NCBI GenBank assembly: GCA_003971905.1
Contig: RSEE01000001.1
Coordinates: forward strand, 310,001-374,000
From: Moniliella sp. 'wahieum'
Taxonomy: Eukaryota
Length of the DNA: 64,000 nt
Direction of reading: 5' to 3'
Each line of letters opens with the position of its first letter. Position 1 is the stretch's first letter. Of the stretch, positions 4,229 through 55,795 are shown piece after piece. Position numbers and translations under genes: made by a program. The notes beneath the pieces were generated by a model. That model saw nothing but the letters and a program-made list of their open reading frames with translations. It was not told the origin of the DNA and ran no database searches.

Positions 4229-5121
4229 ATCAAACCTATCCTATCCTATCCTATCTTGCCTGCCGCAGTTGGCTCTTTGATCGATCACTACCCGCTTCTC
4301 CCAAAGCATGTGCTCCATGAGCTTCCGTATCCCCGTCTGGACTGCACTAGGATCAACTCCTTGCAGATCAATCGATATTATTCACAGCAGCCTTCGAAGC
4401 GCGAAGCGCGTGAAGCCTCGCTCACGGCCTTGAAAGTGATTAAAGGACAGTGATTAGGCAGCATTTTCCCGTATATGCTAGCACTGATAATCCAAGCGAA
4501 CACCGAAACCCGAGGAAGGTGTCAAGCGCTCGAGAGGGCCGCAAGACGGTTTTGGAAGCTGCATTGCTTCGTCTGGCGCTCCCCAACAATAATGCTACCA
4601 CGGTCGTTGGTGACCTGTCTGTCACCTGTCTTCCCTTCTCGATAACCTCGTCTCCACTTAACTGCCTCCTCGTCTTCCAACCTCGTACCTCTAGCATTCC
4701 ATTCTCCACGTGGGCGCAAAGCTGGCACACACCGCTGTGACAGCCTCCTTCTATAGACACCTATAGTCTCTGGGATAGCTTCAATCGTCTTCCCTCTCTT
4801 CTGGCTCCTTTCCACTCCCTCCTCCCTCTCCACTACCCTCTTTCGCCCTGCGCTCACCAGTAATCAATCCCTCTAGCGATCATAGCTGACTGCTTGCTCT
4901 TTCGGGGGCTGGGCGCTGGGCGTGAGGGCCTCTGTGATCGACTTGACGATGTGAGAGGTTTCGCTGGTCACCTGAGGCCCTTGGGCCTGAGGTTGGGTCT
5001 GAGGAGGTGTGCCCTGGCGTGCTTGGCTGTACGTAAGCGAATGGGCCAGCTCGGGGGCGTCCTAGGGGTTTTGCATGGTGCATGAGTTAGACACCTAGCG
5101 GCGCGCTCTCGCTTGTCACTA

Positions 5122-5372
5122 TCACTAGTCACTAGTCACTAGTCACGCGTGGCTGGGCGGGGGGGCACTCTGGCTGCGCACCGGGCAGCATGCAAGGTGA
5201 CCCCCCTGTGGCCCCCGCGCGGAGCCACCCAGCTGTCAGCGTCGGGGCTGGCCATGCCGTGCACATCAGCAACCCATCATGCATCATGCATCATGCATCA
5301 TGCATCACACGTGGCATCCACCCCACAGGCGCATGTCACATGTCACATGGCCCATGGCACGTCGCATGTCAC
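5122..5372. repeat. 7-bp phased arrays upstream of chitin synthase
   Basis: (TCACTAG)3 TCACGCG at 5122; (TCATGCA)4 at 5277; (TCACATG)2 at 5336. Confidence 0.9.
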
Positions 5373-5587
5373 ACGTCGTGCAGGGCACCAATGCCCGCAC
5401 CACCACACTGTGTGGCGCGCGGCAAGTGGGCGCACAGCGCCAGTGCCTCCTGCTGCGGGCTGCCCCCACCCGCCAGGCACTGGCGTTGTGCCCCATGCGT
5501 GACAGCAGGCACGCTGCCCTGGCAGCAGACCGGAGCAGCGCCCCACCCGGCTCTCGCTGGTCGGCGCGGCGCTGCCTCGTTCTCCTC

Positions 5588-5618
<31 letters not shown>

Positions 5619-5675
5619 TCCCTCCACCTCTCTCTTCACACTCGTTCTTCTCCCGCCTCGTACCCCCACCCACCC

Positions 5676-8630: not shown

Positions 8631-10030
8631 TTGACATCGTGGTCCCTGGCGGGTAGAGTTGAACCCAAGATCGGGTGCTTTGCTTTGCCGACGCAGGCGT
8701 CGGTCCACCACACATCCTTCTTTCGGCTCTCCCCCGCTGTCTTATTCCCGCACGGTCATGAACCACCAATCACGTCCTTCGAGTTCAGTAGGCGTTCCCT
8801 TTTAGTTCGTCTCGTCTCGTCTTGCCCCCTCCCTCCTTCATTTACACCTCACCCACTCCCGCGCTCGTTCCCAGCTGCACACCTTCCTTGGCCACTCCGT
8901 AACCCCCCCCCCCCCCCCCCCCCGACCCCTTGCGCATTCGTTCTTATGCCAGTGCTCTTGGACGACTCTCTTTTTTGCACAGCCTGCTATACCCCCTTAC
9001 TGCCAGTGCCACCCTACTCTGCCTAGGGTCGGTACCCTCGCCTTTTCTGCCCTGGAAACGCTTCAAGACGACCGCAGATGTCGCTGCCGCTCATGTTGAG
9101 CTCCAACGCCCAGGTGGAAGGTATTGTGGGGTTGATGATTGCTTTCTGTACTCAATGTATATTTTGCCTCGCCTCAATGTGTTGATCACCCTAAAGCTTC
9201 TCAGATCTCAAACTCTTAAGTCTCAATGCCTCATGGTTAGAACCCTCCCGCTCCAAGTGAGAGTTGACTTGACACGAGAAGCTTACCAAGGCAGGTCTAA
9301 ATACAAGCCAGTTTCCTCTTGATGAGGTTGAATGTCCTCCTTTATACTGTTGGGACGCGTTCCCGTGCATAGGGCCAGGCGCCTTATCACCCTTTACCCC
9401 TTCGACCTTATTTGTCCTCCGAAGCCACCACGTGGATATCCGGCTTGTTCGAACCCCTGTCTCCTCGGTGTGGCAAAAGGCTTAGACCTTCACCACCACC
9501 ACCTCGACTGCATTCCTCTACATGTTAGAGTTTCTCCACCCAAACCCTTGGGTTCCTCCGGCCTTACATACACGTTTCCCACCTCCCATATATTGTTTTC
9601 AGTACAAGATCGGAAGGCGGGTATTCAAGTTCCACGGGAGGGAGCAACGGGGGTATGACTCGAGACCCGAGATGGCAGGGACGATCAGGCGTGGAGGCAG
9701 CGCACGGAGGTCGAGTGACCACATGCGGACGCGTGAGCGGGGGGAAGGAAGAGTACAGGACGAAGGTGCGACAATGGGAAGACAAAAAGTGCCTAGGACA
9801 GGATTGGGAGCTCAGAGGATGGGGGGATCAGAGTGGACAGGGACCCCCCCATTCCTCCCTCCTTCCTCGTGGATGCGGGGTGGAAAGGTGAAATGAGGAA
9901 AAGCACAACAGTCATTAGTCATTGGGGGCGATGGAGGTGGTGAATGGGAACGGAAATGGGAGCGGCGGGTGGGGGATGGAAATGAAATGAGAATGAGGAA
10001 ATGAAATAACAAGACGGAAGAGCGAGACCG

Positions 10031-11836
10031 TTACACGGTAAACTCCCATCGTCCCTCAGGGTACCCCTGGAGTGTATCTCCCAGCATGATTTCCCGTCGA
10101 CGCTGGACATAGACCATGAGGTCAGTCACTTTCTGCCTCAGTTGGGTAATCGTATCTTGGTCAATACGCGACTGAAGCTGTTCCGACAACTCTTCACCCA
10201 CCGCGCTCGAGATCACGTTGGTTGTCCTCAAAGATCTCAGTCATGTTGTTGCGCTCGAGGTAAAAGGCCATTGCATAGGTCCACTTGAGTGTCATCCGGC
10301 ATTCGTTAACCACCGTCGCTGCTTTGGCCAAAAACTGCACCTCTGACCACGACAGAACGCCTGCCTCTTGCATCGCGTCCATGTTCTTGCGCGTCTGCAC
10401 CATCAACTTTTCATCCAGACGAGCTGACTGTTCGTGGTTCTGGTACCGGTTGAAGTAGTGGAGGTAGCGCTCCAAGCTCACCCGTGACGATTTGCGGCTT
10501 TCTTTCTCTTGGGCCTTTTTCATGTCAAAGCGATTGCAGTTGTAGTACGAAGTTCCATGCTCCGACCAGGGCCCTCGCAAATCCAGCAAAACTCGTACCG
10601 GCACTTGCGGCAGACCATGTGATTGCACCCTCCGTTCTTCTCAATCAGTGAGTTGCAGCTCGGGTTGGGACAGTCCTGCGTATTGGCCTTGATCCAATTG
10701 GACGTCTCGCTATCGTCCTCGCATTTCTTCAGCCACAACTTGACGATGCGGCAAATGCAAGGCGCATGCGCTTCTTGGCTGCAGCCAAAGCAAAACTCAT
10801 GGCCGTTCCCGCACCGCACGGTAGGCACGATCGTATTCAGCTTCTTGCGCGAAACGTGGCATTCGACCGCAAGCTCGCACCCGGCGCCGGGCACCACGCC
10901 ATCATTCCCGAATCGGAAACAAAGGCACGGTTGAGTAGCGTGCGGTATCGTTCCAGCATTGACGCGTCCACCAGTTGGCCAATCGTGTTCTCGTCAATAA
11001 TGAGCTTGCAGGACTCCTCCATGCACTGCACCCGGCGGGACTCGCCCTCGTACTTGATCTTGTTGTTGAGGTATTCAGTGTAGCATGAGGTGCAGTACCG
11101 GTGACCACAGGCGAGGGCAAGGGTAGACAGGGACGGGATAGAGGGAGGGAGAGGGATGACTTGGGCCGAGCCAGCGCTCTTGGCGCGGGCCACCGCGCGT
11201 TCGTACTCATTCAGCTTCCTCTGCTGGGAGGGCGTAAGACGAGGCAAGTCATCGGTCGACTGGAAGCAGATCTCGCATGTGAAATTGTCATGGGGCGTCA
11301 TTGCTGCTACGCGGGGGCGGGAGGGTCGTCAATGACGCCAGCCTCGTACTTGACCTCATCGGGGGCGTCCATGTAGCGTTCAATCAAACGCTCCTTGTTC
11401 CAGTTCATGTGACGTAGCAGGATGGCCGCATCCGTGTCCTAATTTGAGGCGATGGGGTTAGCAAGAAATCGAGCATAAGAAAAGGAAGAGGCACACCTTG
11501 ACGTTGAACATGGCCGCGATCTGGTCCACCTCCTTCTTCTGGAGATTGGAGATGTCCTGTTCGTTGCGCGAGATATACTCGACTTCCCAAGGCTTCTTCT
11601 TTGGGGTGGGTGGCATCATCGAGTTCATCTTCGTCGATCGTCGACTCGGCGCCATCGAAGTTGACGTCTTCAACGTCAGAGTCATCAAAGGCGACAAATT
11701 CGCCGTCTCCATCGTCGGCATAAAACAACTGTGCGCCGTCGTCGTCCAGGCCCTCGAAGGCGGCAGCGGAGTCGTTGTCGGAGGATGTCATTTCGACGTC
11801 GGACGAGATGTGCTCGTCGGCGCGGATAGCAGACAT
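10031..11836 (-). CDS. Ariadne/ARIH1-like RBR E3 ubiquitin ligase
   Basis: Acidic N-terminus, RING1 (CEICF...CGHRYCTSCY...CMEESC), IBR (WCPAPGC...CGNGHEFCFGC...HAPCIC), RING2 (CPNPSC..IEKNGGCNHMVCRKCRYEFCWIC) and Ariadne domain (SLERYLHYFNRYQNHEQS...LKWTYAMAFYL). Confidence 0.93.
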
Positions 11837-12211
11837 GGTTGCGTTGGCTGGAAGCGAGCGGGGCAGGTGGTGGGGGGGGGGCGGCAGGAGGAGTGGCGGT
11901 GGTGGTGGTGCGAGGTGTGGTGAGCACTTAATGTGACGTGACTCGTCAGTCGGGGGCCGTGAGGACTGCGGCTTACCTAACCAAACGCCGCGAGGGGTGG
12001 GCACGGCGACGACACTGGCGCCGTGCTGGATGCGGTTGAGCAAGCCATGCCTTGCAGCGCAGCCCACAGCCACCGCCGCCCTCCGCAGCGCCCCACACTG
12101 GCCTGGTGCCGCCTGCAGCCACCGCGACGGCCCCTGTCGCTGCTGGGTGCTTGTCCCCGATTGCACCCCTAACCCTACCGCCTCCTCATTGCAGCCGATC
12201 GAATCGACTGG

Positions 12212-12895
12212 TCAACGTTCAAACGTTCAACGTTCGTGTCGACGCGAAATATGTGAAACGTCATTTCTCCCCTCCATCGAATATTGAGCAGGCTGAGGCC
12301 CTGAGGGGCCTGAGGCTCAGGCCTGATGAGGCGCTGAGGCTCAGCGCTGGCTGACGTGAGGCTAAGGGGTGCCAGTGATGCAAGATGAATGACCGGTGAT
12401 CCCGCCATCGCGTCCACATGACGTACCGCATTCTATGCCTTCAAGCTTCAAGCTTCAACCTTCAACAGTCGTTTGTCGATCACTACCCTTTGGCCTTAGG
12501 CTTAGGCCTTATGTCAGCGGTTCAGTACCTCAGTACTGAGACTCAGTTGAGAGCGTTGAACGTTTGCAATTTGAACGTTGAATATTCAATGTTGAACTCA
12601 ACGCTGAACTTCAACAGCTTCAACACTGGTACCGCAAATCACTGGCTGGTCGCATGTCACATGTCACCGATCACCGATCACCGGTAACTTAACTGTGCCC
12701 CTGGCGCTGCAGCGCTGTCTTAGATACTCCGCACACCGCTCCCTCCCTCTCTCCCGGCTCCGCAAGCCACACAGGAAATCATGCATCATGCATCATGCAT
12801 ACATCAGTCACCGATCCTAGTCATCATGCATCACTCAGGAGTGACTCGTGACGCGTGACGTGTGACTAGTGACTGGTAACTAGTAACCAGTTACC
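12212..12895. repeat. Cluster of 7-bp phased T[G/C]A-N4 arrays
   Basis: TCAACGT units at 12212; TCAAGCT x2-TCAACCT-TCAACAG at 12441; TCACATG-TCACCGA x2-TCACCGG at 12657; TCATGCA x3 at 12779; seven phased units at 12842-12890. Confidence 0.9.
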
Positions 12896-13504: not shown

Positions 13505-15095
13505 TACATGTGTATAAGTGTGGCGTCGTGTCCTCGCTTGAGCGCATCGTAATGGCTTGCACCCCTCAGTCCAGGTTTGTGTGGATTGCATGAGACGGTG
13601 CGGAGAGCTCATTCTCCAACTCAGCGCTCCTCCCCGAAACCCACATCCACAACAGCCGACGGTGGAGAACCAGGACGGCAAGGCGTGGGAGGGCGTGGGA
13701 GGAAGGCGATGCGTACTGACTACTGACTACTGGCCGTCACGGAGCGGGCCCCCGCCAGGGGGCACGCCCCGGGGTTTGGGGTTTACGATCCCTTTGGAGA
13801 CAGTAGGTCGACTAACGGTAATTTCGGGCTTGGACTAGTTGGTGGTCCGAGCGGAGCTAGGGACGAGAAGAGGCCTTTGGTGGGGCGGCTGTACTGCGTC
13901 TGCACTGGCTTGGGCCGTAGTAACGTGTCTGAAGCCTCCGGGACTAAGGGACGGGAGGAGGCAGAGGTGGACAAACACTGCCTCAACGGAGACTGGATAG
14001 AGACTGGAAATCGACGTAGCTGAAGGACGGCTCGCGCGGACTGGACTGATGGAGTGCTGGAGGACGAGGTAGGAAGAGGAAGCGGGAGCAAAGAAGAGAG
14101 GAGGCTACCTACACTGGATCAATTGGATCGAAACTGGACAGGAGTCGGACAGGATAGGCGAGAGGGGACGAAGGGGTTGAGGAGATTGAAGACGAGAGAT
14201 GACGAGAATGGAAGGTGGGGGGGGAAAGGATCACCATCAACCAGGGGTACAGATTAGATCAAAAGGGAAACGGATACAATAGGGGGAGTGTAGAAGGTAT
14301 GTCAAAAGAGGAGTTGGTCACCGCATGAGCGACCGAGAAAGGAAAAGGAAACGGGGACAGAGGCGACAGTCGTCGCCAAGACACAACTGGAAGCTCGGCT
14401 GGCCTTATTTAGGCCAGCCGACTTGGACTTAGGCGGGGGGGGGCGACTATTGTCGTGCGGGTGCATGGCCCTTCGGGCCCCGGTACCTAATTTAACCAAC
14501 CAACGTCACACTTGGTTGGACTGCGGAGCACGCCCTACTGTGGACATGTGCGGATAGAGCAGGCCGGCTTTAGCTTGGATCGGACTATCTCGGGCCTACC
14601 GCAGCCCGTAACACTGGCTATCGAGTGATGTGAGACCTTGAGCAATTGGAGGATTGGGAATGGAGGTGGACCACACGTTGCGAGACTCGGGAACTCAGGA
14701 GGGGATGGCTGCGTACGGGAGGGTGGTACGCGACAGCACCGCGACGTACCTGGGACGCACCCAAGAACTCTTCTTCCCTTTGGTTTGACGACTCGAGGGT
14801 ATACCATATTATGCCATCAAGACGGGGTGAACAAGATGTTTGGGCACTGGAAGGAATTAGCTAATGAGTACTGAGTCTCAATGGAGATGGTTCACCGCTC
14901 GGATGTCTACCACGTTCATCCGTATCCACACGCACTGCCTCTGGTATAGGAACAGATGGCGGCACCAGAGGGCCCTGATCTGCTGTCGATTCCCCTGGTT
15001 CCCTAAACGCGTTTGGCGCCAACAGGCAACACGCGCCTGATGAGCGAATCGGTTTAGGCGCACCGTTTTCCTATCCTAACAGCCGTAAGCTGCGT
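13505..15095 (+). mobile_element. Decayed 3' fragment(s) of the CRE-like retrotransposon (copy 1), interrupted by about 870 bp of unrelated sequence
   Basis: 13505-13730 aligns by eye to about 17245-17445 (ATGTGTATAAGTGTGGCGTCGTGTCCTCGCTTGAGC vs ATGTGCAAGTGCGGGGTCATGTCCTCGCTGGAGC). 14598-15095 aligns to about 17428-17955 with an internal deletion (GGAATGGAGGTGGACCACACG identical; GHWKELA / AHWKELA). Confidence 0.8.
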
Positions 15096-17960: not shown

Positions 17961-18615
17961 CAATGAAATGGACGTGATACACCAGGGCATGCCTCTGGAT
18001 GCCGAAAGATGCCAAGAAATAACGATGATTGTTTGACATCTCTCCATTTGCTTTTCACCTTCGAGCTTCGATCGACAACGTGCATCTCCATCTCTGTCAC
18101 ATATATTTTTTTCTTTCCGATCGGTATCATGCAATCATGTTTAATTCCGTCGTTAGTGTGTATTCGATGTGCCTATACAGAGAAGAAGGAGGATCCGACA
18201 TATATACCCCACAGCTACTATAATCAATGTGTTGGCCACTGCCATCGAGCTGGCGGCCTGCCTCCTGTACCACATCATATGGATATGCGGTTGGCTGATT
18301 ATCACTTTTTTGAGAGTATATCCATCTTACGTACGGAGGATTGAGAATGTTGTTGGCATGACATGTTGACATGTTGATTTATCGACACACCTTTGTTGAC
18401 TAAGTTTGGAGCGAGAGTACCTGGCCTGTATTCAAAAGAATCATCAATCAAACCCGATACATTTGTAGCAGTGGCGGGGGGTCACATGCATCACATGGCC
18501 TCACACATCTCGACTCGCATTCTTCCTTGAAGCATCGACCAGATGTATATCCCCCTCATCTATATCTACTAAGACGCAACAAAAGCGCCCATCTATATGG
18601 CCTTCCTATAGCTCC

Positions 18616-19680
18616 TGACTAGTGACTAGTGACTACGGCCTGAGGCCGGAGGTGTCTGTGAAATACCGATACATTTGCTCACCGAGTCTAGCATAAGTAC
18701 ACTGAGTAACGTACTGAGCTCCTGAGGCGTCAGCCTGACGTCTGAGGCCGGTCTGAGGCCTGTCGATGAGATCGATGATCAATGGTAGATGACCTACGTG
18801 GCTTGACCAGCTTGAAGCTTGATCACGCGTCATGTCACGCGTCAAGCTTCACACGTCGCGCTGACATTGGCGTTGGACCTTTGAGTTGAAATGTCCAAAT
18901 GAAACATTGGGCTGGTAGCTTCTTGAACAGATTGGTGGCAACGTGCGAGCAACTGCGCGTGCGAGCAACCGCGGGAACATGTAACACACGTTAACATGTT
19001 AACAGATCATCGATCATCGATCACTACTCAGTACGCACTCTGCTGATGGAACTGCTAAAACCAACTACACCATTTTTGGCTTTCTGACTTTGGCCTCGGC
19101 CGCATGGGTTTGCCGATGCATCCTCCCCACTCGAAGCGTGCTCACGCGCTCGCATGCTCACAGCCGCTCAGCACGCCCAGCAGTAGTATACTAGAGATCT
19201 GAACTCCCACACATGTATATCGGTAGCATTATCACAGGCACGATAATAGAAGAACTTTTCCCGTTTATAGCTAGTAGCAAATGGAAAACGCTTCGGGCCG
19301 GGAGCGCTGATGAGACGTTGAAGCCTCAAGCTTCAGTCTGCTTCAGTTGCCGAAAGGCTAATTGGCGTATTGCAGATGGTCTCTATGACGCGTGACGATG
19401 GAGAGGAAGGCGATCTTCCCCTGCCCCCGCTGCATACCATGAACTCGCCCTGGTATGGGCATGTGGTCGGATGGTCCTCTTCGTCTTGGCCGCCGTCATA
19501 CATCAAACTTCAAGCCTTAAGCTTTAAGCTTCAAGTCCAGGGCCAAGTAGTCGGTGATGTGGGTGGTGATCGTATGACCAGTCGATGACAGGCGGGCGTT
19601 GACCGGTGACCGGTGACCGGTGAGATCTGAGATCTGAGATACACGTGTGCACATGATGATCATGAGAATGCACATGCATG
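18616..19680. repeat. Cluster of 7-bp phased arrays
   Basis: (TGACTAG)2 at 18616; TCACGCG-TCAAGCT-TCACACG near 18835; (TCATCGA)2-TCACTAC-TCAGTAC at 19007; (TGACCGG)3(TGAGATC)2 at 19600. Confidence 0.9.
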
Positions 19681-20144
19681 TGGACATTCTACGTAGCTGC
19701 ACTGCTGTTGGGCCAGGGCCGTCAGCCATCCGAAACAACCGTACGCGCGGACGTCGCCATCGCGCAGCGCGCATGCTATAGATGTCCGCCCAAACGCTTC
19801 CGCCACACACGCGTGCACTGCAACGCAGAGAGGGGAGAGGAGGATCCAAAAAGCGCCTCTTTCAGCGCGCTTCTCATCGCTCCTATAAGCCCGCAGACAG
19901 TGTCATATTACCTCCCATATATCTCCTCTCCTCTCGACTTCACCCCCCGGGCTACCCGCAAAGCGCATGGCCATCTAGCCTCGCCTCCCCTCCTCCCCCA
20001 ATTCCACGTCCACGTCTGCCCTCCTGTTGACGACCGACCCCCACCCTTTTATCATATTGCACGCCCCCCTTCACGTCCTTTGCTTGAATTTCCAGCTTTT
20101 CCCGTACCGCCCTTGTCTTCCTCACATTCTTTCCGCTCCGCATT

Positions 20145-21547
20145 ATGCGCCTTTTTCCATTGGTGCTTCTTGCTGCGGCCCACGTTGCGTGTGCTGCTCC
20201 CATCCGAGGGGTCAACCTTGGGTATGTCCCGCGGACGTCTCTTTTCGAAGCACCAAACTGAGTACTGACTGCAGAGCATGGGATGGATGATGTTTCGTTA
20301 GCGGGTGGTTGGTAAGCGAGCAGTGGCTCGTACCTTCCGTTTACCAATCAATGGGGAACAACTCCATCATGATGAATGGACGTTTGGGTATGCCCCCAAC
20401 GCCACCCAAATCCTGACCAAACACTGGGAGAACTTTGTCTGAAGACGATTTCCGCCAGATGGCCGCCGTGGGCCTGAACTATGTCCGGTATGTCGTTCCT
20501 CTGTTCTGCATTTGTCAGGGATAGGCGCGCGTGGTGCTAGCTAACGCAGTTGCAATGAAGGATTCCCATGGGTACTGGGCTACGACACTCGGCAGGGGAG
20601 CCTACGTGCACGCCAACCAAACGGCCTACTTATCTCGTGCGGTCGGTTGGGCTGAGAACCACGGGATCAAAGTCATCATCTGTTTGCATGGCGCACCCGG
20701 TTCCCAGAATGGCCACGGCTCGTCCGGCCGAGTGGGGGGTATGTACTGGCAAGATGCTCAGTCGAACGCCAATCGTGCCGAGGCAGTGTTGAAACAGATT
20801 GCTTCTACCTTCAGCTCGAAACAGAGCACAGTGACCCACATTGAGGCGCTCAATGAGCCTTTGCTCAACATGAACAAGGACAACAACGTTGCCTTTACTA
20901 AGAATTACTACTACTGCCCTCAACCAGTTGCAGTCGGGGTTACGTCGGTGTACCATGATGGGTTCCTCAACCTGTCTTCCTGGTACACCTTTAATGGTGG
21001 CAAGGGATCCGTCGATACACACATTTACGCCAACATGTACCAGTACAACAGTGGTCTCGCCAGTACGTGCTTTCCCGTACAGTAACTCTTGTTGTTGAGG
21101 GTGTGATGGGTGATGGGGGGAATGGAAGAGACGACTGACCATTGTATATGGTACTGCTGCAGACCCACCAGCGTACAAAAACGTGACGGATGTCGCGTTG
21201 CGGCAAGTATGTCAACTCAAGGGGGCGCTCGCAGCAAGCCAATCGCACCACGAGACAATCGTGGGAGAGTGGAGTGTCGCACAGACGCAAGAATCAACGG
21301 GAAAAAGCAGGCGCAGTCTACTTTCGGTGCGGGAGGTCCGGTCCTCCCGGTCGAAGGCGCGCCCTCATCGATCCCATCCTGGCGGGGTCGACGATACGCT
21401 CTACCGACAAACAACTGTTCGACACTCAGTCGCTCGCGTACGAAAACAACGCAGCCGGATGGATCATGTTTACTTGGAAAACCGAAGATTCAACAAGTTA
21501 GTGGTCCTACCAAGCTGGCTTGGGTCATTGGATCCCGACCAATTTGA
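20145..21547 (+). CDS. Secreted glycoside hydrolase family 5 (exo-1,3-beta-glucanase-like)
   Basis: Signal-peptide-like MRLFPLVLLAAAHVACAAP followed by IRGVNLG (intron) GWLV.EQW, CLHGAPGSQNG, IEALNEP (acid/base), DTHIY, TIVGEWS (nucleophile) and GWIMFTWKTE. Introns start at GTATGT 20222 and 20488. Confidence 0.88.
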
Positions 21548-26322: not shown

Positions 26323-27262
26323 GGTCGTGCGGGTCGTAAAAGGCGTTAAGGGTGCGTTAGAGGTGGTGGATGGGAATGTGGTGGTGGTGGCAAGCTCGGA
26401 GAACTTGGTGGGAGAAATCGTCGCAATCCACGTATAACTTAGCTCAGGGGCTTTAGTATTTCGGTAGACCCTCGACTCATCGATGATGCAACAACGATAT
26501 TATACTTCTACGTATAATCGACTTCTGGCGGTTGCACCCTTATAACTCCTGAGGCCTGGCTTCCCAATATCCAATGCTATAGGCGGGACAGTACAGCTGT
26601 TGGACCTCTTCCAACGGGGCGCGAGGTACGGTAGCGCACGGCGGCCGATGCGGCTTGAAGCTTGGAGCATGAAGCTTCAACCTTCAAGTTTGATCGATGC
26701 GCGTGATCGTACCCTCTGTTGCCTCTGTCTTTCCTCTTTCTCTTTCCTTTCTGCCGCAGGAATCTTCGCAGTTGGGCTCTCGGGGCAAGAGGCACACCCA
26801 CTGTTGTGCGGTACAGTTGCCCCCCCCCTCCCAACGACTATCTCTACTAAATACTATAACCGGCCCCCTTTCCCGGTGGAAGTCCGTTGGGTCATACATA
26901 CGATTCTATCCCACTGCGCTGGTGTGTGGCTACGATCTCGCCCCCCCCCTCCCCCGTCCCCTCTGCCTGCAGTATATCAGTTCAACAGAGCCACCAGCCT
27001 AGCAGGGCCAGTGAATGCCCCGATCCATACGTTCACCAGGTATCATATATCACGCGTCACGCCACCATGCCCGGTCGCGCTGGTGCGTAGCAAGGGTGTT
27101 GGTCTTGTTGATTCGGCTGAGCGCGCTGAGCTGTACTGGCCGAGCGGCTAAGCGCTCAGCTGCTGAGCTCGAGCCGCTGGGCATAACTAGTACATTGACT
27201 ACGAGGAGGACCACCGGCCTACGGCCCGGTCGGCTGGGGCTTCGCCCCAGCTTGGTGCTTCG

Positions 27263-27410
27263 TCGCCACCTTAGCCACCGTTCCCCCTTCGCCACCTTAG
27301 CCACCGTTCCCCGTCGCCACCTTAGCCACCGTTCCCCCGGCCCACCATCGCCACCTTAGCCACCGGTCCCCTCCGCCACCTTAGCCACCGTTCCACCGTC
27401 GCTACCGTTC
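27263..27410. repeat. Minisatellite, about 5 copies of TCGCCACCTTAGCCACCGTTCCCC (25-34 bp period)
   Basis: Units start at about 27263, 27289, 27314, 27348 and 27374. Confidence 0.95.
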
Positions 27411-35874: not shown

Positions 35875-37049
35875 CGGCTTGATCCTTGCTCTTTCTCCTT
35901 GCACCTACCTCCGCATGCATCACTGCTCATATTTCCTCATCTCCCTCTCTCCTCTTGCTTGCTTCTTGCCCATCCATTTTAGTCGCAGCCATCGATTCCT
36001 CTATACCGTTATGTCGCGCTTCCGGTCACTCCAGGCGCCCTAGATGAGCACTGAGTCGTCAGTCGTCTGCCCTGTTTCTTCCACGGTCCAAGGGAGAGAG
36101 ATCATGTATAACTGTACAGTTTGCCTCGGATCTCTTTGAATTCCCGGACATTCTCCTCCTAGCTTTGGATCTTCATTTTGCCTATGGCCTCAGCCGCGCT
36201 ACCACCGACATAAAGCACCCTCTCAACACGCGTAAGTGAGGGTACATGAGGAGGTCGCCCCCAATACCCCTCTAGCAAATCCCAGCTTTGACCGCGGTTC
36301 TGCCACGTTTATGCCTTGGCCAGGATGCGAGCATTGGACCGGCGCTTGGCCAGTACCACGTTCCAACAGGTTCTGGATTGACCAATGCTTGAGGATGGCC
36401 GAGACCTGCCTTATCGCGGCGTGCCAAGGTTCACTTTGGGACCTCAGGCCTCATTAACTCATTGCAGTAATTGGCTTGGCGTGAGAAGTCACTTCATTCT
36501 GGCTCCTCTCTCGGTTGGGTCATGGGCACCTCAATTACAGTGCAGGGGGAGCAAAGGTCAACTATAAGGCTGCTGGAACAATATATCTCTTTCCGTCGGT
36601 GGAACAGCTTTCAGGCTTATATGATTTCGAGGGCGCTTGCCCACCGTTTGGGTCGTCAGATGCATTTGCTGCTTGCAAAAAAGACAGGTCACGGTAGAAA
36701 AACAAGGCCACAGTCAACATGCCGCACCTTGTTCGTACCATGTCCAAACGTTCTTTGGTCCAGGTGGTCTGCGAAACATGAGAGGACACGTCATTAGAAG
36801 AATTATAAGAGAGCGAGGGCCAATGGGGGGCAAGGAAGGTCGGCGGGGGGGGGGGACGCGGTGCGCCAACCCTAACATGTGTCCACCTACAGTTAATTAC
36901 GGTAGGGTTGCAAGCTCCAACTGCCCGCCTACGCGTGTTTGAATTTATTGCGGTTCCATCACACTTTGCTGCGGGAGCTGCCCCCCTCATCGAACTGAGC
37001 CGAGCCGCGAGCAAACGTCGTCGCCCCCACCCGACGAACTGGAAACAAG

Positions 37050-42516: not shown

Positions 42517-43889
42517 AGCCGATGGTCGGATGCAAGGAACAAGGTGGTTGGAGGGTTGCGAGGCAGATGGCTGTGGGCTTTTATTTGCTCGTTATATCAT
42601 CTGATGAATCTGACGCGTGCTGGGACTGAAGTGGTATGGTACGTGTTACCGTTGCTCTTCCCACGGTGAAATCGGCGGAGGGTCTGGGCGGTCATGTGCA
42701 GATGAGCTGCATGACAATCTATATGATCAGTTCGTTCCCCCGGTGCTGGCGGTTGGGGGAGAGGCCCTTGGACCTTTGGAGCGAGTTAAACGTTAAACGT
42801 TAAGGCTGCAGTAGGCAACACAGGGAGGTTCGTGCGCCCACCCCGCGATGCGCCAGGATGCATTTCGACAGTGTGGTCGGCTTTTGCCCGCTTTGGCGGG
42901 ACATGGATGGATGACCTGGCGACGAGGCAACGCGTGATGATCGATGACGGTGCGGACTAGTGTGGTGGCGTCACTGTGACAGGTACTGAGTACACTGAGT
43001 ACTCACTCAGACGAGTACCTAGTGTAGTACTGAGTGGCTGAGGGTCTCAAGAGACTTGAGAGCTTGCGAGCCTGAGGCCTGGGCCCGAGGAGCGCTGCGA
43101 GAGAGATGGATGAGGTGGGCTCATCGACGACTCGTACTCAGGAGCCGCTGAGCTTACTCAACGTGTTGGGGCTGCTGAGCCTCAGTCCCCCAGCCCCCAC
43201 AGCGCTAAGAACTCACCGGTGACCCTGGGCGCTGGCGTTGGGTTAATACGTACTGCACTCAGTAACTAGCCTCTGCAGTGCCCCCTCCCTGGGGACAGTA
43301 CTTTTTCAGACGTCCATCCCCCTGGTGCCGAGGGACGGCGAAAGCGCCGCGTAGAGCCTGGGCTGCTTGTTCCTTCATCAGGCCTCAGGCGAGCATGAAT
43401 GATTCATGGCGCGTGAGCTCAGTACTGGGTGTGCCTCCAAGGTCATCGATCTCATCGAGCTGTCCATGGGATCTCCAACCACTGAACTTCTTGACTTGAA
43501 CTTGGGTGGGGCCCGGTGCGGCGCTGGAGTGCTGCAGCTGCATTGCCGACGAAAAATCTGGTTATTATGTCCACGCAAAAAGCTTCAACATCTCATCCAA
43601 CCGCCAGGGTCTGGAACTCAGGCACTTGGACCTGAACGCAACTAGTACCGGCAGCTGCAAGCTGTGCGGTACCGAGTGTAGAGTTGGTGCACCGAGTCGA
43701 TGTGGGCCAAAAATGGCCTGCTCGGGGGTTAGGGCGTGGAGCGTAACCCGAAGCCAGTGCCACTTTTATGTGTTCTCTGTTGTGTATGCGGTGCGGCCTT
43801 TTGGAGAATCGTGACTCTTGATCATTTCCTCCTTGAGATGATTTGGGATAGATATATCCTACTGCAGTTGCATTCCATCACATCTACAG

Positions 43890-45750
43890 GTTTGAAGTCA
43901 GGACAAGGAAATACGGCGCCTAACTGGCTCGCTCATCCGGCGTGTGCAGCTTTGTTGGTGTCGACCCGATTAGGAAACCGGAGGATTCGCCAGCAGCTCA
44001 AGACTCTACTTGCGCCCGCAATTCGCGCCCAAGCCGGATGTAGCGTGCGTGGATACGGATGAACGTGGTCGACAGGTGGGCGGTGAACCATCTCCAAAGA
44101 GAGACTCATCGCAGTTAATTCATTCCATCACACGCCCAAAACACCTTGCTCTCGCCGTAGTATCCGGAAAAGACATGCTCTTGAGTGCGCCCCTGGTGCT
44201 TGGCATTGTTTCCTGTGGCGTTCCAAAGGCATGGTGGTTGTGGCTCGTGTGCCTCATTCCGGTATACGCAACCATTGTCTCTCCTTTGTGCCCGAGTCCG
44301 GTAAAGAGTGGTCCACCTATCCATTCCTGAACTTGCGAACGCTCCGGATCCCATCACTCGGGAGACTGCACGTCTGGCAGTCCGCCCACACTGCGTCGCG
44401 TCCTCTTGCTCCACAGTCGGCTCGTTGTGGGTGTGAATGTTCAGGATGAAGCACACAAGATTGATAGTTGGCTCCCGCACAGCCTCGTTGGTGCACCAGC
44501 TCGGACTGTGGGTACGGGTGTTAGCCGAGATGTGCCCAAGCGAGAAGACATCAGATCACTTGCTGCTCGAGGAACGGGACAGGATAGGGAGAGCTAGATA
44601 CTAATTAGACTTTGCTTGCCGGTGAGCGCGAGAGGTACTTGGTTGCTGGCATTGAGGCAAGTAGAGTGTAGTTGAACGCGATTGCTATGCTCAACCACAT
44701 TGCGCCCATCGGCCCCGTTGGGGTTATATTGAGGAGTACCTGACGACTCTTCTCCCACATCTTCTGACAACGCTTGTCCTGCGTTGTAAATGCGTTCGCC
44801 ATGTATGCGTCCGTGGGGGCAACAAAAGTGGAAATAAGATGGCCGTTGACCTCATTGGGCACAGCACGCGTGGGGCGCAATGTACCAGCAGAGCGGACAG
44901 CCGCATCCTTCCATCGAAGAGGCAGGCTCATGAGGATATCGAGGTGTGATCGTCGTTCCCCCCTTGAGAGGGTTCTCGTTCCGCCAAAACTCCGTGCGGA
45001 TGAAAGCGTCAATTTCGGCCAGCACATCGTCCTGCTCTCCCTCCATCTGCATGGTACGAAGTAAGCCGGGGTGCAGCTGGTCTGAGCATAGTACCGCCAT
45101 AGTAAGAGGCGTCCTGACGGGTGATGCCATCTGATGAGACCTGGAGTCCTGTGATGTCCTCGAGGGTGATGCAATCGCACTGGTGGTGGTGGTGGTGGTC
45201 TAAGCCAGCCAGCAACGCCTAACCAGCCAGCAACACCTATACAGAGGAACATCAAGCAGCGAGTCGCCACCAGGGGCTAAGCTGCGGAACAAGGAAAAAA
45301 CGCGAGAGAGAAAACAGAATTCCCAGGCCTCTGAGGAGGAACTGAAGGGACATTGGCCAAAGCACGAGCCACCGATGCTCAACACCATCGAGCTCAGTAG
45401 GCACGTCCAGTCTCAGGTGTCACGCGTCACGATCACAGTGATGCACCTCAGCTTCCACACACGATAGTGCTTAGGACCTCGATAAGCCGTCATACCTAAT
45501 CTGACCCCAGTCCCGTTCAGCGCACTAGCTCGGTTTGAGTGTGAGCTGACGGGCCTTCTTCCAAAACCATAGCTTCCTACGAACCGAGCGTGGTGCACCG
45601 ACGTCAAGTGAAAAGCTGGGTAGGGGTACCAGAGATCCAAGGGGCCAAACAGAAAGAAGAGGTGGGACATGTGTATATCCGTGGGGAGCGCGTTTGGGCG
45701 AGAGTACTATATACGGTGATGCAGTTTACGCGTTACGGTCACTCGGGACC
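43890..45750 (-). mobile_element. Highly decayed copy of the CRE-like retrotransposon (copy 3)
   Basis: Minus strand reads LLRTMQMEGEQDDVLAEIDAFIRTEF (copy 2: MQMEGELDDVLAEIDAFICTEF), DILMSLPLR, NAFTTQDKRCQKMWEKSRQ and TTFIRIH. Positions 45610-45730 match the RT region HAPHLL..WIYGSPTS. The 3' tail lies at 43897-43995. Confidence 0.85.
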
Positions 45751-47573: not shown

Positions 47574-48037
47574 GGGTGGATCAGACACGATGGGGGGGCG
47601 GTGGTGGCTGGAGAAGAGGGAGCCGCAGGCGGACATCATGCATCATGCATCATGCACCGAACGGCGTACGTCACTGCACGTGACAGCGTGACTGTCCGTC
47701 GGACCCCGAGGCGACGGGCCGGCAGCATGCAGCACCAGGCAGCACCTCGAACGGCTGTGCGGGGGCAGTGTCGGGCTGTGTTTGCTGTGCTGCTCTGCAG
47801 GCAGCTGCGCAGCCAGACAGCCCCTGCGCCACCGGTGAACACGATGTGTGACGGGACGAGGCCAGCACGGGGGCGGTGTGGGGCGGGCGGCGGGCGGCGG
47901 ATGCGCCACACTGCCTGCGGACAGCGCGGGGAGGAGGGCAGTGTTGCGTTGCGTTCTGGGTCGTCGTCCTCCGCTCCGCGCCACCACCACCCTCCCGCAT
48001 CCCGCCATCGCCCCCACCATCGCCCCCGCTGCCTGCC

Positions 48038-50552: not shown

Positions 50553-51500
50553 TCAAACAGAATGCGATCGCGCCTCGATTCTAGGGAATCCGCGCTCACC
50601 TGAGGGCGTGAGCGCGTGAGCGCGTGAGCCTAGCTGGGGACGCTCAGTTTCGGACTTGGTAACTTGGCCGACACCGCCCTTGGGCTCAGCGTCACATCCG
50701 GAGTCCCGAAGGGCCTGGGCCCGCGTTGCCGCCGCCGGCCGACTGTCGCGTTCGCGCATCATAGCGGATGCGACCTCCATGAACCTGTCAAATGCTTCGG
50801 GAGGCATGTTGTGTCGCGCATCTGGAGGAGCAGATCCGTGAGCTCGGGCGGGATCGACCGCCTCTCGGGGCGGGATGGGCACGTTCGGGCCGTATGTGCG
50901 CGCAGCATGTCGCCTTGCTGCAACTCCATGTGTTGCAGCTGATGGAGCAGGGTAGGGTCGGCGGAGGTGGGACAGCAACCACGTCATCGAAAAAGCCGTC
51001 GTCTTCTATCTCCCCAACTTTTCCCGAATTTCAGCGGGGGCCAGCCTTCGTGCAGCGCCTCCAGCAGCATATCATCACCGCATTCGGTGCTTCGCCGAAC
51101 CAGGGTTCCACTTTCAGCATCATTTCTTTGTGTGACAAGCGGCCGTTCCAGATCGTTCAGCATATCGTACACTCGGGCGGGCCTCCATCGAGTCCCGCCA
51201 CCGGTCCGCGTCCATTTCCATATACTGGAGCAACCGTTCCTCGATTTGCGCAGGGTACAACCCCTTGCCCAGCGCGTCCAGCACGACATCCATCACGTCT
51301 GCGGCACCGGGTCGTTCACCTGGGTAAACTTTTGGCGGATCTCCTGCGCCGTCCACCCCGCGCGCGCATCCCACAGCAAACCAAACACGTCCCGGCGGCG
51401 GTATGAAAGGTTCCTGACCCAACGGGGGGCCCGGAAGTTAAGTTACCAAGACCACCACGACCACGACCACCACCACGGTAGTAGCACCACCAGTAGCACC
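50553..51500 (-). CDS. Hypothetical protein
   Basis: Globular-looking segments across frames (DVMDVVLDALGKGLYPAQIEERLLQYMEMD; MPPEAFDRFMEVASAMMRERD). Family not recognised. Confidence 0.4.
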
Positions 51501-53065
51501 AGCAGCGGGAGCACCAGCACCAGTTGCGCTTGCGGAGGGGGCGGGAAGCGGCGGGGGCAGGGCCGGTGCCGCGCTGGTCGGCTCGGTTGGGCATTCTCGG
51601 TTGGGCATTCGCGGGGGGAAGGGGCGGGAACCGTGGGGGGGGAAGAAAAGAGCAGGCCTCGGCTGCGGGCTGTCGATATACACTCCTCCCTGGGCGAAAG
51701 GGGAGAGGGCAGATGGGCCGCTGCGATGCTTGATTGGACGGTGCGGTGCAATCGCCGCACACTGCCCCCGTCGGGGTGTGTACGTGGACGAGCGATGCAC
51801 GTGCGATCATCGATCGAGCTGCGAGCAGAAGGCTCGAGCGCAAGCAGTCATGATCAACATCCGCAGCCAGCGCCCGCCACGCTGGAAGCCGGCCGATGCG
51901 CTCCATCCCATCGGCCAGCATCTCCACGCATCGAGCATCCCCAATCAATCATCATCGCATCATCAGTCCCCGCTCCCTGCCCCTGCGTGCTTGGTGCTTC
52001 CCCCACCACGCCCTCCCGTCCCCCCCATTCCCAGCGAGACACATTGCCATGTAGCCATCCCACCGCGATGGTTGCATTCCCTCCTCGGCGGGTGCATCCC
52101 ACCCGTCCTCAGCGTTGTTCCCTCACGTCTCGCCGTGGGGTGCTTGGTCGTCCTCTGGCCCGCTAGCTGCGCAGCCTGGCCGCACATGAGCGCCGCCTCG
52201 ATCGTGCGCTGCAGCCAACCGCCTCTGGGAGCTCTGCGTGCCCATCAAATAGACCCCTCTGTCCCAACAGCGGGTTGCCTATGCATGGACACGGGGGCGA
52301 TGCGCACGCCGGCGGGGTGCTACGGTCTGGAGCGTTTGGAGCGAGTTGTGCTAGTTATGGTTAGCGCCGGGGTTGCTCTCTGCAGGGAAGGGGCCTAGCT
52401 GAGAGAAGGTGGAAGCTTGCATGGGGGCATCCTTCTATGTTGGCGGTCTGCGTGTTGGGTGCCCGCTGCGATGCGGAGCGGAAGCGGCTATAACGTCTCA
52501 GGCCCGATGCCTCCGGAGGCCGAAGGCCCGAGTCTCACAGGCGAGTACGTGAGGACGGAGTGGCGTCGGCCAGCTGGGGCACTGGGCGGTGTCAGAGTAG
52601 CCTGTTTTCAATTGTGCCGCTGACAGGAGGTGCTTTTGGGGGCGGTGTGTTGTCCTAGAGGGGGGGGGTGGTGGTGGTGGTGGTGTGGTGTGGTGGTGGT
52701 GGTCGCCCGGGCGAGGTGGGGTGGGGAGGCAAATGTCGCCATGGGCGGCGTGACGTGCTGGCGCCGGTGTGGCCCAGCGCCATTCTTGCGCCGCAGTGGG
52801 CGGTGTGGGCGCCAGTCGGCCACTGCGTCGCTGCAAACGTCGAATCAAATCAGCCTGGAATCATCCCCGCACGCGTGATCGCCGATAAGCGCTGGGGTGC
52901 CGTGTGCCGCGTCTCGTCAGTCTCACGACGCGGTCCCGCCAGCTCCGCATCCTCCGTCCACGCAGCGGAGCCACGAGCGACCCCCCCCATCCCCTCGCAT
53001 TCCAGCATCGCACCGCCTCGCCTCGCCTTGCCTCCTCCTCCTCCTCTCCCTCCCCCGACACCTTC

Positions 53066-54821
53066 ATGAGCTCGACCGCGCGCACGCCGCTTACGTCCGG
53101 CAAGTCGACGCCGAAAGCCGTGTCGAAATCCGCCTACCAGGCCACCCCGTCTTCCTCCTCCCCGACCCTCTGCTCCCCCGCCCCCAGCATGCGTGCCGCC
53201 TCTTCTGCCGAGCCTTCGTCTCCGGGCCTGGGCAGCGGCCGGGTCAGTCTGTTCATCTCATCGGCCAACCTGCTGAATGTGCTGATTGGTGCTGGCATCT
53301 GTGCCATGCCCTACTCCTTTGCCGCGGCTGGCATCGTGCCTGGGTTTGTTCTGGTGGTTGTGTGTGGGGTAACGTCGGCGTTGGGCGTGTACCTGTTGAC
53401 GCGCTGTGCGGCCCGACTGGGTGGCAACCAAACCTCCTTCTTTGCGATTGCGTCGGCCGTGTGGCCCTCGGCGCGCCAGGCGATTGATGCCGCAATTGCG
53501 ATCAAGTGCTTTGGCGTCGCAATCAGTTACCTGATGATTGCCGGCCAACTCATGCCGCAAGTGTCGTGGTCCTTGGCGCGCATCCTCACCGGCTCGCCAC
53601 AAGGGTTCCCTAGCGTGCTGTACTCGCGCGAATTTTGGATTGCCGCCTGGGCCGTGCTCCTGGCCCCGCTCTCGTTTTTGCGCCGGCTCGACTCGCTCCG
53701 CCACACGTCCTACGTCAGCTTCTTGGCGGTCGTGTACCTCGTTGTCATTGTTGTCTACTACTTTTTCGTCCCGCCCACTTTTTCGACCGAAGCGCACATG
53801 GCTTCTACCGCTCCTGCTCCTGCTCTGCGCCCACGCAGCCCCCTCCAAGCCCTCGCCGAACCGCCCCCAAGGGTGACGTGCACTGGTTCCACATGACGAG
53901 CGAGTTCCTCAGCGTTTCCCCCGTGTTTGTGTTTGCCTTTACCTGTGCTCATGTACGTCCTCCTTCGACCTCGTTCCTACCTCTCAGTATGGCACGCGGG
54001 GCTATTCTTGTTTCCGCACGTACCCAGTACTAACCCCGGCTCCAGAACGTGCTGTCCGTGTACAACGAGCTCAAAGACACACCGAGGCGCGGACGAACGA
54101 GGTGATTGGGTGGTCGATCGGCTTGGCAGGAGTGCTGTACGAGGTGGTAGCCATCCTGGGGTACTGCACCTTTGGCGCCCATGTGAGCGCGAACGTGATT
54201 GCTTCCTACCCGGCCGACTCGCTGTTTGTCTGTGGTGGACGCCTGGCCATTGTCGCCTTGACATTGATGAGTTACCCCCTCACCATCCACCCTTGCCGCG
54301 CGTCCCTGGCCAACATCTACGCCGCTTTCCGCCCTGCTGGACGCTCCGGGACCAGACCACCAGCGCCAGTGCCAGCATCCACGACGAGACGGAAGCGTTG
54401 GTCTCCTCGGACGAGACGGGTGGCGGTGCTGGTGCAAGCCCGGTCGCTCCCGAGCTGGGCACGCTGGCCTGGGCCGGGGTGACGGTGGCGTTGGTGGTGA
54501 GCACGACGGCGATCGCGATCGCGGTGGAAGACTTATCCCTAGCCCTCGGGTTGTCGGCAGCGTTGGCTCCACTCCATCTCGTTCATCTTGCCGGGCTTGC
54601 TGTACTGGCGCATGTTCCGCCACGCAGACGGCGCCGACGAGTTGCCCGGCGGCCAGTTTGCCCCGCTCGAGGAAGGTCATCCGGCCCCGCGCCCGGCCGA
54701 GGCGCAGCCCCCCGCCCCGTCTCGCCGCACCACACTGCATTTGGCCATCGGCCTCACGGTGTGGGGCGTGGTCGTGCTCGTGGTCACGCTCACGGCGAAT
54801 ATCCGCAAGGTGCTCGCATGA
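53066..54821 (+). CDS. Vacuolar amino-acid transporter, Aa_trans family (AVT5/6/7-like)
   Basis: SSANLLNVLIGAGICAMPY, DAAIAIKCFGVAISYL, PLSFLRRLDSLRHTS, PVFVFAFTCA, GYCTFG, SYPLTIHPCRASL, FILPGLLYW. Confidence 0.92.
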
Positions 54822-55124
54822 AGCTCCCATACCAAGCACCAAGCACACCACACGACCTGACATCCTCGATCCCCAGCCCCACTAGAACCACTGCATCGCC
54901 CCACGTTTCTTGTCTTTTTTCGCCTTGCCTCTCGGATGGACCGATCGTGCCGAATCTAAGTCTGTGCTCAGCCACCTTCCCTGCGCTGGTTGGCGCCTGG
55001 TCCCGCGGTCGGGTGGGTGGGTGGACCGGCGATTGCGATTAGGGCGCACGCTCCCCCTTTATGTCAATGGGCCCAAGCGGTGTAGATGGGGGGGAGGATG
55101 CGGGATGGTCGATGGAGAGGCCTG

Positions 55125-55157
55125 TGACATGTGACATGTGACATGTGACATGTGACA
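55125..55157. repeat. (TGACATG)4 array
   Basis: Four exact 7-bp units plus TGACA. Confidence 0.95.
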
Positions 55158-55795
55158 GGGCTGGTTGCTTACGTACTCCCCGCGGGCCGCTCGTAAGCGC
55201 GGGCGGAGATAGGCGGGCGACGTGATGAGTGGGCGATGCGACAGGCGTGGAAGCTCGGGGAAGGCGAGGGGGCGGTGATTGATGACGTCGGCGGCGTGTG
55301 GGTCACCGCCGCGGCCGAGGGGGGATGGGACGGGATGGGCGCAGGCGGCGAGCTGGGGCATGAGCCATGCTGACGCGGGCGGTGCAGCGGCGGGGCGAGG
55401 GCGAGGCAGGCGGATGGGGGCGGAGGCGCGGGGGTGGCCGGTGGGCTGCTCTGCTCGGCTGGGCCTCAGCTGCGACGCACCGCCGCCCGTCGAGTGCGCG
55501 GCGGAGGATGATGCAATGGATGGCGCAGCGCAGGATGCATGTGCATGCGATCTGAGATCTCTGAGGGGCCGCAGAGCGTCATGCGTCGGCGGGTGAGGGC
55601 CCGAGCGTCGAGGCACACGGGCGCAGTGGGGGCGCATGCGTCATTAAATAAGCGCTGGGCCCCCGCCGCAGCCTCCGCCTCGCAAGCACTGAGCCCGGCC
55701 ATCGGACGCACCACAACCGTCCGCGCATCCGACTCTACCCCAGCCGCCCATCCGACGCAGCGCCCCCCCCGCCATCGCCCCCCCTGCTCCCCTCC

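Follow-up and report, generated by a model that had tools for sequence, protein, structure and literature searches.

Seven-base palindromic joints upstream of genes in a smut-lineage fungus, most likely stacked excision scars

The stretch analysed here, 64,000 nucleotides of contig RSEE01000001.1 from Moniliella sp. 'wahieum' (positions 310,001 to 374,000), is referred to below as the window, and all statistics rest on this single 64-kb window. It is fungal DNA with introns and a G+C content of 61%, and its intergenic regions repeatedly carry a short pattern, the subject of this report, in which copies of the triplet TGA or TCA are separated by a self-complementary core of four bases, giving a 7-bp period. 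Pfam searches identified a KIN1-like kinase, chitin synthase, an Ariadne-type ligase, a reverse transcriptase fragment, a GH5 gene, two C2H2 genes, a histidine-biosynthesis gene (read as HIS7), an EH-domain gene (read as PAN1), RPL24, a squalene/phytoene synthase, eIF3i, an SDR gene, a bZIP/DUF3425 gene, an amino-acid transporter and an XMAP215 homologue. The top named relatives of eIF3i belong to the Ustilaginomycotina (55-63% identity), and the source organism is a fungus of the smut lineage.

The heptamer pattern and its location

Tandem arrays of this kind had been described in the original prediction, made from the letters alone, and they lie where it placed them: CTAG cores at 5122 and 18616, TGCA at 5277, 12779 and 47636, CATG at 5336 and 55125, ACGT at 12212 and 42787 (the latter with TAA), AGCT at 12441, TCGA at 19007, and CCGG followed by GATC at 19600. 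Set against 60 block-wise dinucleotide shuffles, the kind of control it had proposed, T[GC]A-N4-T[GC]A was enriched (121 observed vs 53.5±7.5), and the core was palindromic in 60 of these 121, compared with 3.6±1.8 in the shuffles (maximum 9); 13 distinct palindromic cores were counted where about 10 had been claimed. The proposed comparison with neighbouring periods also singled out period 7, with a self-complementary unit in 19 of 36 exact repeats (0.9 expected), whereas the corresponding figures for periods 6 and 8 are 4 of 65 and 0 of 9. In intergenic DNA, the same triplet recurs in excess at spacings of 7 (73 vs 10.2), 14 (47 vs 11.0) and 21 bases (28 vs 10.0). Among 32 strand-collapsed trinucleotides that could frame a 4-bp palindrome, TCA/TGA leads with 33 loci vs 1.6, followed by TAA/TTA (5 vs 0.5) and CCA/TGG (11 vs 3.2), while cores of 2 bp occur no more often than by chance (5 vs 6.7) and only a few have 6 bp (2 vs 0.4). 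Long even palindromes remain at the level of the shuffles, and only the T-N-A centre is enriched among odd palindromes, which suggests the target choice of a protein. The pattern is thereby confirmed as real.

Parts of the original description have to be qualified. It had envisaged a regular series of hexamer dyads; the cores are indeed palindromic, but the middle base is identical in both triplets in 52 of the 60 palindromic hits, leaving only 8 perfect 10-bp palindromes. Tandem arrays exist, but most of the 33 loci (22) hold a single unit, 7 hold two and 4 hold three to five. The remark that none was seen within confidently identified coding regions is nearly correct, the two coding hits (16515 in the reverse transcriptase frame and 34968 in PAN1) being at chance level. 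Core decay is low: among same-triplet pairs, 52 cores are perfect, 21 have one broken base pair (10.8 by chance), and those with both pairs broken number 16 vs 16.1 expected.

With hand-drawn gene limits, 30 of the 33 loci fall in 19,061 intergenic bases, 2 in the 5,802 bases of retroelement remnants and 1 in 39,137 gene-body bases. The 30 intergenic loci stand among about 665 intergenic T-S-A sites (S for G or C), and 29 of them lie in intervals that hold the 5' end of a gene. Within the window, 49 units of 7 bases make up about 2% of the intergenic DNA. For comparison we used the surroundings of eIF3i in other eukaryotes, 37 loci each at least 3 kb long (492 kb; 43 of 80 loci were shorter and were dropped), some of them near-duplicates and none from a close relative. 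Palindromic same-triplet pairs in this set (20/307) match the chance level of 1 in 16, as against 52/89 in the window, so that among the genomes compared the pattern is restricted to this one.

Joint anatomy and surrounding features

A site can be written a-b-T-S-A-c-d, with primes for complements. In 23 of the 33 loci the core reads c-d-d'-c' or b'-a'-a-b, mirroring the two outer flanking bases (0.1 in shuffles), and in only 5 do both flanks match. The flank-matching runs at the 66 edges measure 0 bases in 27, 1 base in 11, 2 bases in 18, 3 bases in 4, 4 bases in 5 and 5 bases in 1, so that 28 edges reach at least 2 bases, compared with 4.1 expected, and 18 stop at exactly 2; a complete 7-base duplication is absent from 18 of the 33 loci. 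It follows that the minimal event combines a direct copy of 5 bases with 2 inverted ones. The features concerned are listed below; none is assigned a strand.

764..777: TGA-ACGT-TGA, part of a degenerate composite located upstream of the KIN1-like kinase
5122..5145: three TCA-CTAG units upstream of chitin synthase, the core matched by neither outer flank
5275..5307: four TCA-TGCA units; the left flank matches exactly 2 bases, the right end is flush at TCA
5332..5349: TCA-CATG-TCA, with a match on both flanks
9199..9212: minimal one-sided joint with core GATC, combining 5 directly copied and 2 inverted bases; no other locus lies between convergent genes
9910..9923: a non-palindromic 7-mer (TCA at positions 3-5) occurring twice in plain tandem; both copies of the target are kept and no bases are inverted
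12212..12890: nine same-triplet loci (12212, 12390, 12441, 12572, 12657, 12779, 12824, 12849, 12863) densely clustered upstream of the Ariadne-type E3 ligase, together with opposite-triplet, 8-base and 9-base joints
12609..12624: diagnostic joint of two whole non-palindromic TCA-centred 7-mers; the 2 bases between them reverse-complement the first bases of the right copy
13714..13732: tandem non-palindromic 7-mers, TGA-centred
14863..14876: one-sided joint TGA-GTAC-TGA within a retroelement remnant; the paralogous copy near 17740 is shorter by 7 bases
18125..18139: 8-base joint in which the whole left overhang (TGCA) is accompanied by a single base from the right copy
18614..20270: nine same-triplet loci clustered upstream of the GH5 gene (18616, 18813, 18823, 18835, 19007, 19326, 19386, 19600, 20259)
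19600..19640: composite of three CCGG then two GATC units in one 7-bp register; the right flank is mirrored by the right core
27041..27061: composite in which TATA mirrors the left flank and CGCG the right flank; two independent events at one site
36442..36463: composite whose GGCC core derives from the left flank and is followed by an 8-base joint, the TTAA core of which derives from the right flank
42785..43390: clustered features upstream of the SDR gene, comprising a TAA-ACGT array (42787), loci 42938 and 43378, a 9-base joint (42985-43000) and opposite-triplet joints (42996, 43213)
45418..45737: one-sided joints TCA-CGCG-TCA (45420) and TTA-CGCG-TTA (45726)
47634..47656: TCA-TGCA array upstream of the bZIP/DUF3425 gene
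50607..50629: period-8 variant TGA-GCGCG, overhangs overlapping by three bases
55123..55157: four TGA-CATG units at a palindromic site, each end stopping exactly 2 bases past TGA

We then compared models of target duplication followed by hairpin opening, scanning duplication lengths of 5, 7, 9 and 11 bp, each with even (RAG-like) and odd (hAT-like) hairpins. A 7-bp duplication with even palindromic (P) nucleotides fits 37 loci, 32 of which need the inverted bases (0.55 in shuffles), compared with 1 vs 0.5 for the odd hAT-like hairpin at 7 bp, 2 vs 0.15 at 5 bp and 3 vs 0.25 at 9 bp; lengths of 5 and 9 bp were therefore rejected on joint anatomy. A grid run without a prior on the centre also peaked at length 7 and an opening of 2-3 nucleotides (nt), with 43 vs 3.6 joints in non-genic and 6 vs 6.0 in genic DNA. 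It was near chance at an opening of 4 nt (8 vs 4.4 non-genic) and at chance level at length 5 (43 vs 39.6).

Furthermore, minor products predicted by the 7-bp model are present, namely 8-base joints at 12294, 18127 and 36451, a 9-base joint retaining both whole copies (12609-12624), and blunt pairs with TCA or TGA in the middle at 9910, 12453, 12669 and 13715; these minor joints fix the duplication frame at 7. In the composite arrays at 27043, 36444 and 19600, each of the two cores comes from the flank on its own side, with the qualification that at 19600 the right core fits its flank and the left flank is one base off. The data thus show the anatomy of the product, its centre, its length and its location.

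The same type of joint is also seen around CCA/TGG (7 loci vs 2.1; 4910, 26564, 37745, 40745, 55106 and 55435), which suggests a looser target, Y-N-R, with T-S-A preferred. Three period-9 joints (18480-18497, 18763-18780 and 43441-43458) take the form T-S-A + x-y-y'-x'-x-y + T-S-A, which the simple model does not explain, and two of the three carry an identical 16 letters on opposite strands.

Decayed retroelement remnants lie at 13500-18000 (+) and 43900-45200 (-), both in scar-rich intervals. They include a reverse transcriptase frame (Pfam RVT_1; 16114-16668), and the 3' part of the element is present in three copies that are about 70-77% alike. The C-terminal frame resembles unnamed eukaryotic clusters (score 0.96), the nearest named family, zf-RVT (0.85), being a lead only, and by its sequence the element is probably a non-LTR retroelement. 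At 14865 one copy exceeds its paralogue by 7 bases, at a point where the paralogue has an open frame, and is thus an example of an insertion, though not of the route by which it arose. A second 7-base insertion in the same copy, at 14797-14806, forms an 8-base palindrome that lacks a T-S-A centre; it fits a hairpin opened 4 nt from the tip together with one later substitution.

Some other features of the window lie apart from the pattern. HIS7 (27920-29790) contains several frame changes, through introns or errors. A cytochrome c heme lyase match at 35208-35684 (+; Pfam, E 6e-12) lies on the strand opposite to the drawn 5' part of PAN1 and may be a separate gene, in which case the drawn limit of PAN1 is off. 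Irregular tandem copies of an 18-25 base motif at 27261-27410, between a C2H2 gene and HIS7, resemble the subterminal repeats of a DNA element, and no matching other end was found. An intergenic tandem duplication of 86 bases at 27454-27627 (98% identical) is either recent or an assembly error, and an imperfect inverted repeat of 66 bases (78%) upstream of chitin synthase, at 5429-5494, is unrelated to the heptamer rule. No close relative of the locus was found, the best eIF3i loci on metagenome contigs being only 36-66% identical; an eIF3i search of viral contigs gave no match, and the stretch 3460-15459 has no look-alike in the other genomes compared.

Probable excision footprints and rival explanations

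We consider it probable that the units are footprints left when a cut-and-paste transposon with the 7-bp target nnTSAnn was excised, a process in which hairpins on the flanks would have been opened 2-3 nt from the tip and rejoined in register, with repeated hits and slippage building the arrays. A dedicated mutational process, one of the options left by the original prediction, is supported. From the products we infer an element, a hairpin, a nuclease and a joining step that would act as follows. The element would insert at the 7-bp target a-b-T-S-A-c-d (less often around T-W-A or C-C-A), mostly in open DNA upstream of genes, and would duplicate it. On excision, the transposase would seal each flank into a hairpin exactly at the end of the duplicated target, in RAG-like fashion and not one base inside it like Ac/Ds, this exact boundary being suggested by the fact that the palindromes are even. 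A nuclease of the Pso2/Artemis type would then open the hairpins 2-3 nt 3' of the tip to leave overhangs c-d-d'-c' and b'-a'-a-b, and end joining would align these in register, or trim one of them, so that one palindrome is kept. Such joining is predicted to give T-S-A + palindrome + T-S-A, in which the core is a copy of one flank and 7 bases have been gained overall. It can be deduced that openings at 2 and 3 nt yield the same product at T-N-A sites, which would add to the uniformity of the scars. Each scar would in turn offer two new targets, one of them now palindromic, and further hits could generate pure or composite arrays: 3/4 of second hits would extend the same core and 1/4 would give a composite. 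Since repeat hits exceed the random expectation for 30 loci among about 665 T-S-A sites, hot spots, slippage or both are needed; slippage probably lengthens the pure arrays, and no function is required.

Several papers describe comparable chemistry. The hairpin-opening cut of Pso2 and Artemis falls 2 nt 3' of the apex (PMC3299998), Artemis yields products at both 2 and 3 nt and wild-type P additions are at most 2 bases (PMC2715118), the RAG cut lies precisely at the boundary (PMC6900584), and flanking DNA is hairpin-sealed by hAT, Transib, RAG and Muta1 (PMC5499845, PMC6900584).

A number of results weigh against excision footprints. The window contains no intact element with terminal inverted repeats and a credible 7-bp duplication: an element search gave 8 candidates vs 1.0 in shuffles, 4 of which are the arrays themselves and 4 of which span or overlap gene bodies, and one loose candidate, at 17962-18904, is no more than the shuffles give (1.8). 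No transposase emerged when 300 long and 274 shorter frames, partly repeated, were scanned with Pfam. A public DNA run (word share 0.08) searched with 1000-20900 yielded short contigs, mostly on the retroelement, and did not confirm the arrays; the clusters at 12288-13615 and 18264-20900 are almost uncovered in it, and it is thus uninformative about the arrays. No RNA run containing the region turned up. Known footprints are also far more mixed (for Ds in Candida, 128 footprints fall into 28 kinds; PMC5873905), and in over 90% of events no footprint is left by Muta1 (PMC5499845). Within the joints themselves, the grid has a roughly twofold unexplained excess at length 6 (22 vs 10.4 non-genic), and no joint retaining both whole overhangs was found in the window. 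Neither flank matches in 10 of the 33 loci, of which 2 are the coding chance hits, 3 can be read as degenerate composites and the others need later substitutions. Opposite-triplet joints (8 vs 1.6 expected) fit a reading with longer P additions in part only, and the three 9-base joints at 18482, 18767 and 43443 match one flank only. The route taken at 14865 is ambiguous because the flank of the paralogue also allows plain duplication of a palindromic heptamer with one substitution, and the third retroelement copy has indels of its own in this comparison. Finally, the assembly carries single-base errors, one of which is the likely cause of the one 26-base step in the 27-bp coding repeat of PAN1 (34262-34449), and joints of 6 and 8 bases are less safe for this reason.

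Among the alternatives, the one that comes closest is a template switch or fold-back during replication, in which the T-S-A end would pair with the opposite strand, copy two bases backwards and restart five bases upstream. It gives the same 12-mer as the commonest class, and multi-unit arrays do form folds whose loop contains T-S-A. It would, however, require a loop of one base and a return over exactly five bases unaided by homology, and single-unit loci fold weakly or not at all (0 kcal/mol for 9194-9217). A return guided by homology would instead predict edge runs of 4, whereas 18 of the 28 matched edges stop at 2; the stronger odd palindromes C-N-G and G-N-C are not enriched; and joints that keep both whole 7-bp copies, or c-d in the left copy (12609-12624, 9910-9923), are beyond its reach. 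The fold-back at a T-S-A loop suggested in the original prediction therefore accounts for the 12-mer but leaves these joints unexplained, hairpin-opened ends fit better, and we regard the fold-back as unlikely. Slightly behind it, and also unlikely, comes an orphan or domesticated RAG/EnSpm-like enzyme, or another host nuclease, that would make hairpin-capped ends around a duplicated 7-bp T-S-A with no mobile element involved. Its predicted products are identical, it sits well with the failure to find either element or transposase in the window and with the dense, uniform scars (30 loci in 19 kb of intergenic DNA), but a duplicated target requires a filled intermediate, for which an inserted element is the simplest source. 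Replacing the enzyme with the neighbouring retroelement was rejected, as the clusters at 5122, 27043, 47636 and 55125 are far away and a nick gives no hairpin. A footprint built from element ends was likewise discarded, since 13 cores would demand 13 different termini. Topoisomerase II and Spo11, whose staggers are 4 and 2 bases, are unable to give a 7-base gain.

Slippage of palindromic heptamers, whether ordinary or assisted by hairpins, with later flank decay, would suit the 11 of 33 loci that have 2-5 units and the fact that other periods are also above the shuffles, and it probably did extend the pure arrays. As an origin it is very improbable: the 18 loci lacking a complete 7-base duplication bear out the original judgement that slippage is insufficient, one-sided 12-mers already contradict it, the low core decay could not have erased one flank match at most loci, and composite arrays draw different cores from their two flanks. 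We give just as little credence to a selected code, in which a transcription factor or structure-binding protein would read TGA half-sites 7 bp apart, or small cruciforms, in promoters. The location of 29 of the 30 intergenic loci in intervals with a gene 5' end speaks for such a code, but insertion into open chromatin combined with loss from coding DNA gives the same bias; in addition, there are 13 different cores, dictated by the flank, and one unit lies in a dead retroelement. The prediction's proposal of selected TGA half-sites thus fails on the chance-level number of non-palindromic spacers (16 vs 16.1), and its structural variant is disfavoured by the minority of perfect 10-bp palindromes (8 vs 52), the lack of enrichment of long even palindromes and the poor folding of single-unit loci. 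An artefact of amplification, base calling or assembly seems the least credible explanation of all. The single public run, with its barely covered clusters, did not confirm the arrays in independent reads, and single-base assembly errors such as the 26-bp step do occur, but the pattern keeps to non-coding DNA (gene bodies hold 1 locus in 39 kb), aged versions with one mismatch are in excess, and the dependence of the core on its flank matches known repair chemistry.

Meaning and comparison with known systems

Stacked excision scars remain the most likely reading of the pattern, and the scars appear to be a leading source of small promoter insertions here, frequent enough to resemble a sequence grammar. 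We tentatively propose, at somewhat less than even chances, that a transposon lineage of the EnSpm/CMCT clade, which would have an undescribed 7-bp target centred on T-N-A and would excise through RAG-like hairpins, has mutated promoters throughout the genome of this fungus. If so, one stereotyped scar would seed about half of the exact 7-base repeats, a route to microsatellite birth without a first slippage step. Footprints are normally known a few at a time from reporter assays, and these scars would offer a natural read-out of CACTA-clade excision chemistry and of the in-register joining of mismatched 4-base overhangs, as well as a genomic test of cutting by a hairpin-forming transposase with an unusual target length. 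They would also carry a warning that a strong fungal promoter motif can be a mutational scar and not a binding site. We found no description of the pattern in the literature, in a search that did not extend to subscription papers, figures and most supplements. The original prediction knew of no matching system, and this holds for the geometry, which differs from those described, but not for the kind, as P-nucleotide footprints do match.

Microsatellites resemble the arrays in consisting of short tandem copies of local sequence, but they differ from the single period, the single centre, the two-base one-sided inversion and the absence of a whole duplicated unit at most loci (18/33). Short template-switch mutations also leave short tandem and inverted copies of local sequence, and the same differences set them apart. 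Among transposons, the hAT geometry was rejected, as the odd model explains 1 locus vs 0.5 compared with 32 vs 0.55 for the even one, and an odd dyad at S would flip the middle base, which is kept in 52 of 60 hits. The hairpin of Hermes is offset by one base. Elements such as Ac/Ds and Hermes nevertheless resemble the proposed system in being cut and pasted by way of hairpins on the flanks, with P insertions, end joining and, in yeast, a part for Pso2; Ac/Ds palindromes centre on the complement of the base adjoining the element, giving odd symmetry (PMC5873905). The Hermes target is nTnnnnAn (PMC6900584), unlike the nnTSAnn seen here. Duplications in hAT are 8 bp, or 7 bp in the hAT7 elements of rust fungi, a basidiomycete lineage (PMC12730594); the 7 bp suggested by the joints would equal the latter, no filled site was seen here, and no hAT7 target sequences were found in the supplement of that paper.

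Muta1, which is Mutator-like, seals its flanks without loss of bases (43+43 nt in an 86-nt hairpin; PMC5499845), in keeping with the even palindromes found here. According to the same paper, over 90% of its excisions are precise when the duplication is present, so that scars would be expected to be rare, and its transposase was not found in the window. EnSpm/CACTA and the CMCT clade, grouped with Plavaka, ESTA and Transib, share transposase motifs with RAG1 and occur in basidiomycetes (PMC12730594), and by analogy RAG-like hairpins are plausible in them; we found no paper describing their excision chemistry. The duplications reported for the clade (PMC12730594) are 2-5 bp, unlike the length of 7 suggested by the joints, and the window holds no EnSpm/CACTA-type element, Transposase_21-type transposase or CA..TG termini. 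Pack-CACTA elements have a 3-bp duplication and varied footprints, and duplication length can shift within a transposase lineage (PMC6379663, PMC7780238, bioRxiv 10.64898/2026.08.26.747230).

The closest likeness is to V(D)J coding joints made by RAG and Artemis, and to Transib, in which the hairpin lies precisely at the flank boundary, even palindromes of about 2 bases are added and opening takes place 2-3 nt from the apex (PMC6900584, PMC2715118, PMC3299998). Here too, the model scan and the grid place even palindromes at the exact end of the flank, and the additions are of about 2 bases, with edge runs peaking at 2 and the grid at 2-3. Transib duplicates 5 bp (bioRxiv 10.64898/2026.08.26.747230), as against the 7 bp centred on T-S-A in this genome, and, unlike in V(D)J joints, one class of joint dominates and the scars are dense and germ-line-fixed. 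Thus, while not a member of Transib, hAT or EnSpm/CMCT as these have been described, the system works like a RAG/Transib coding joint.

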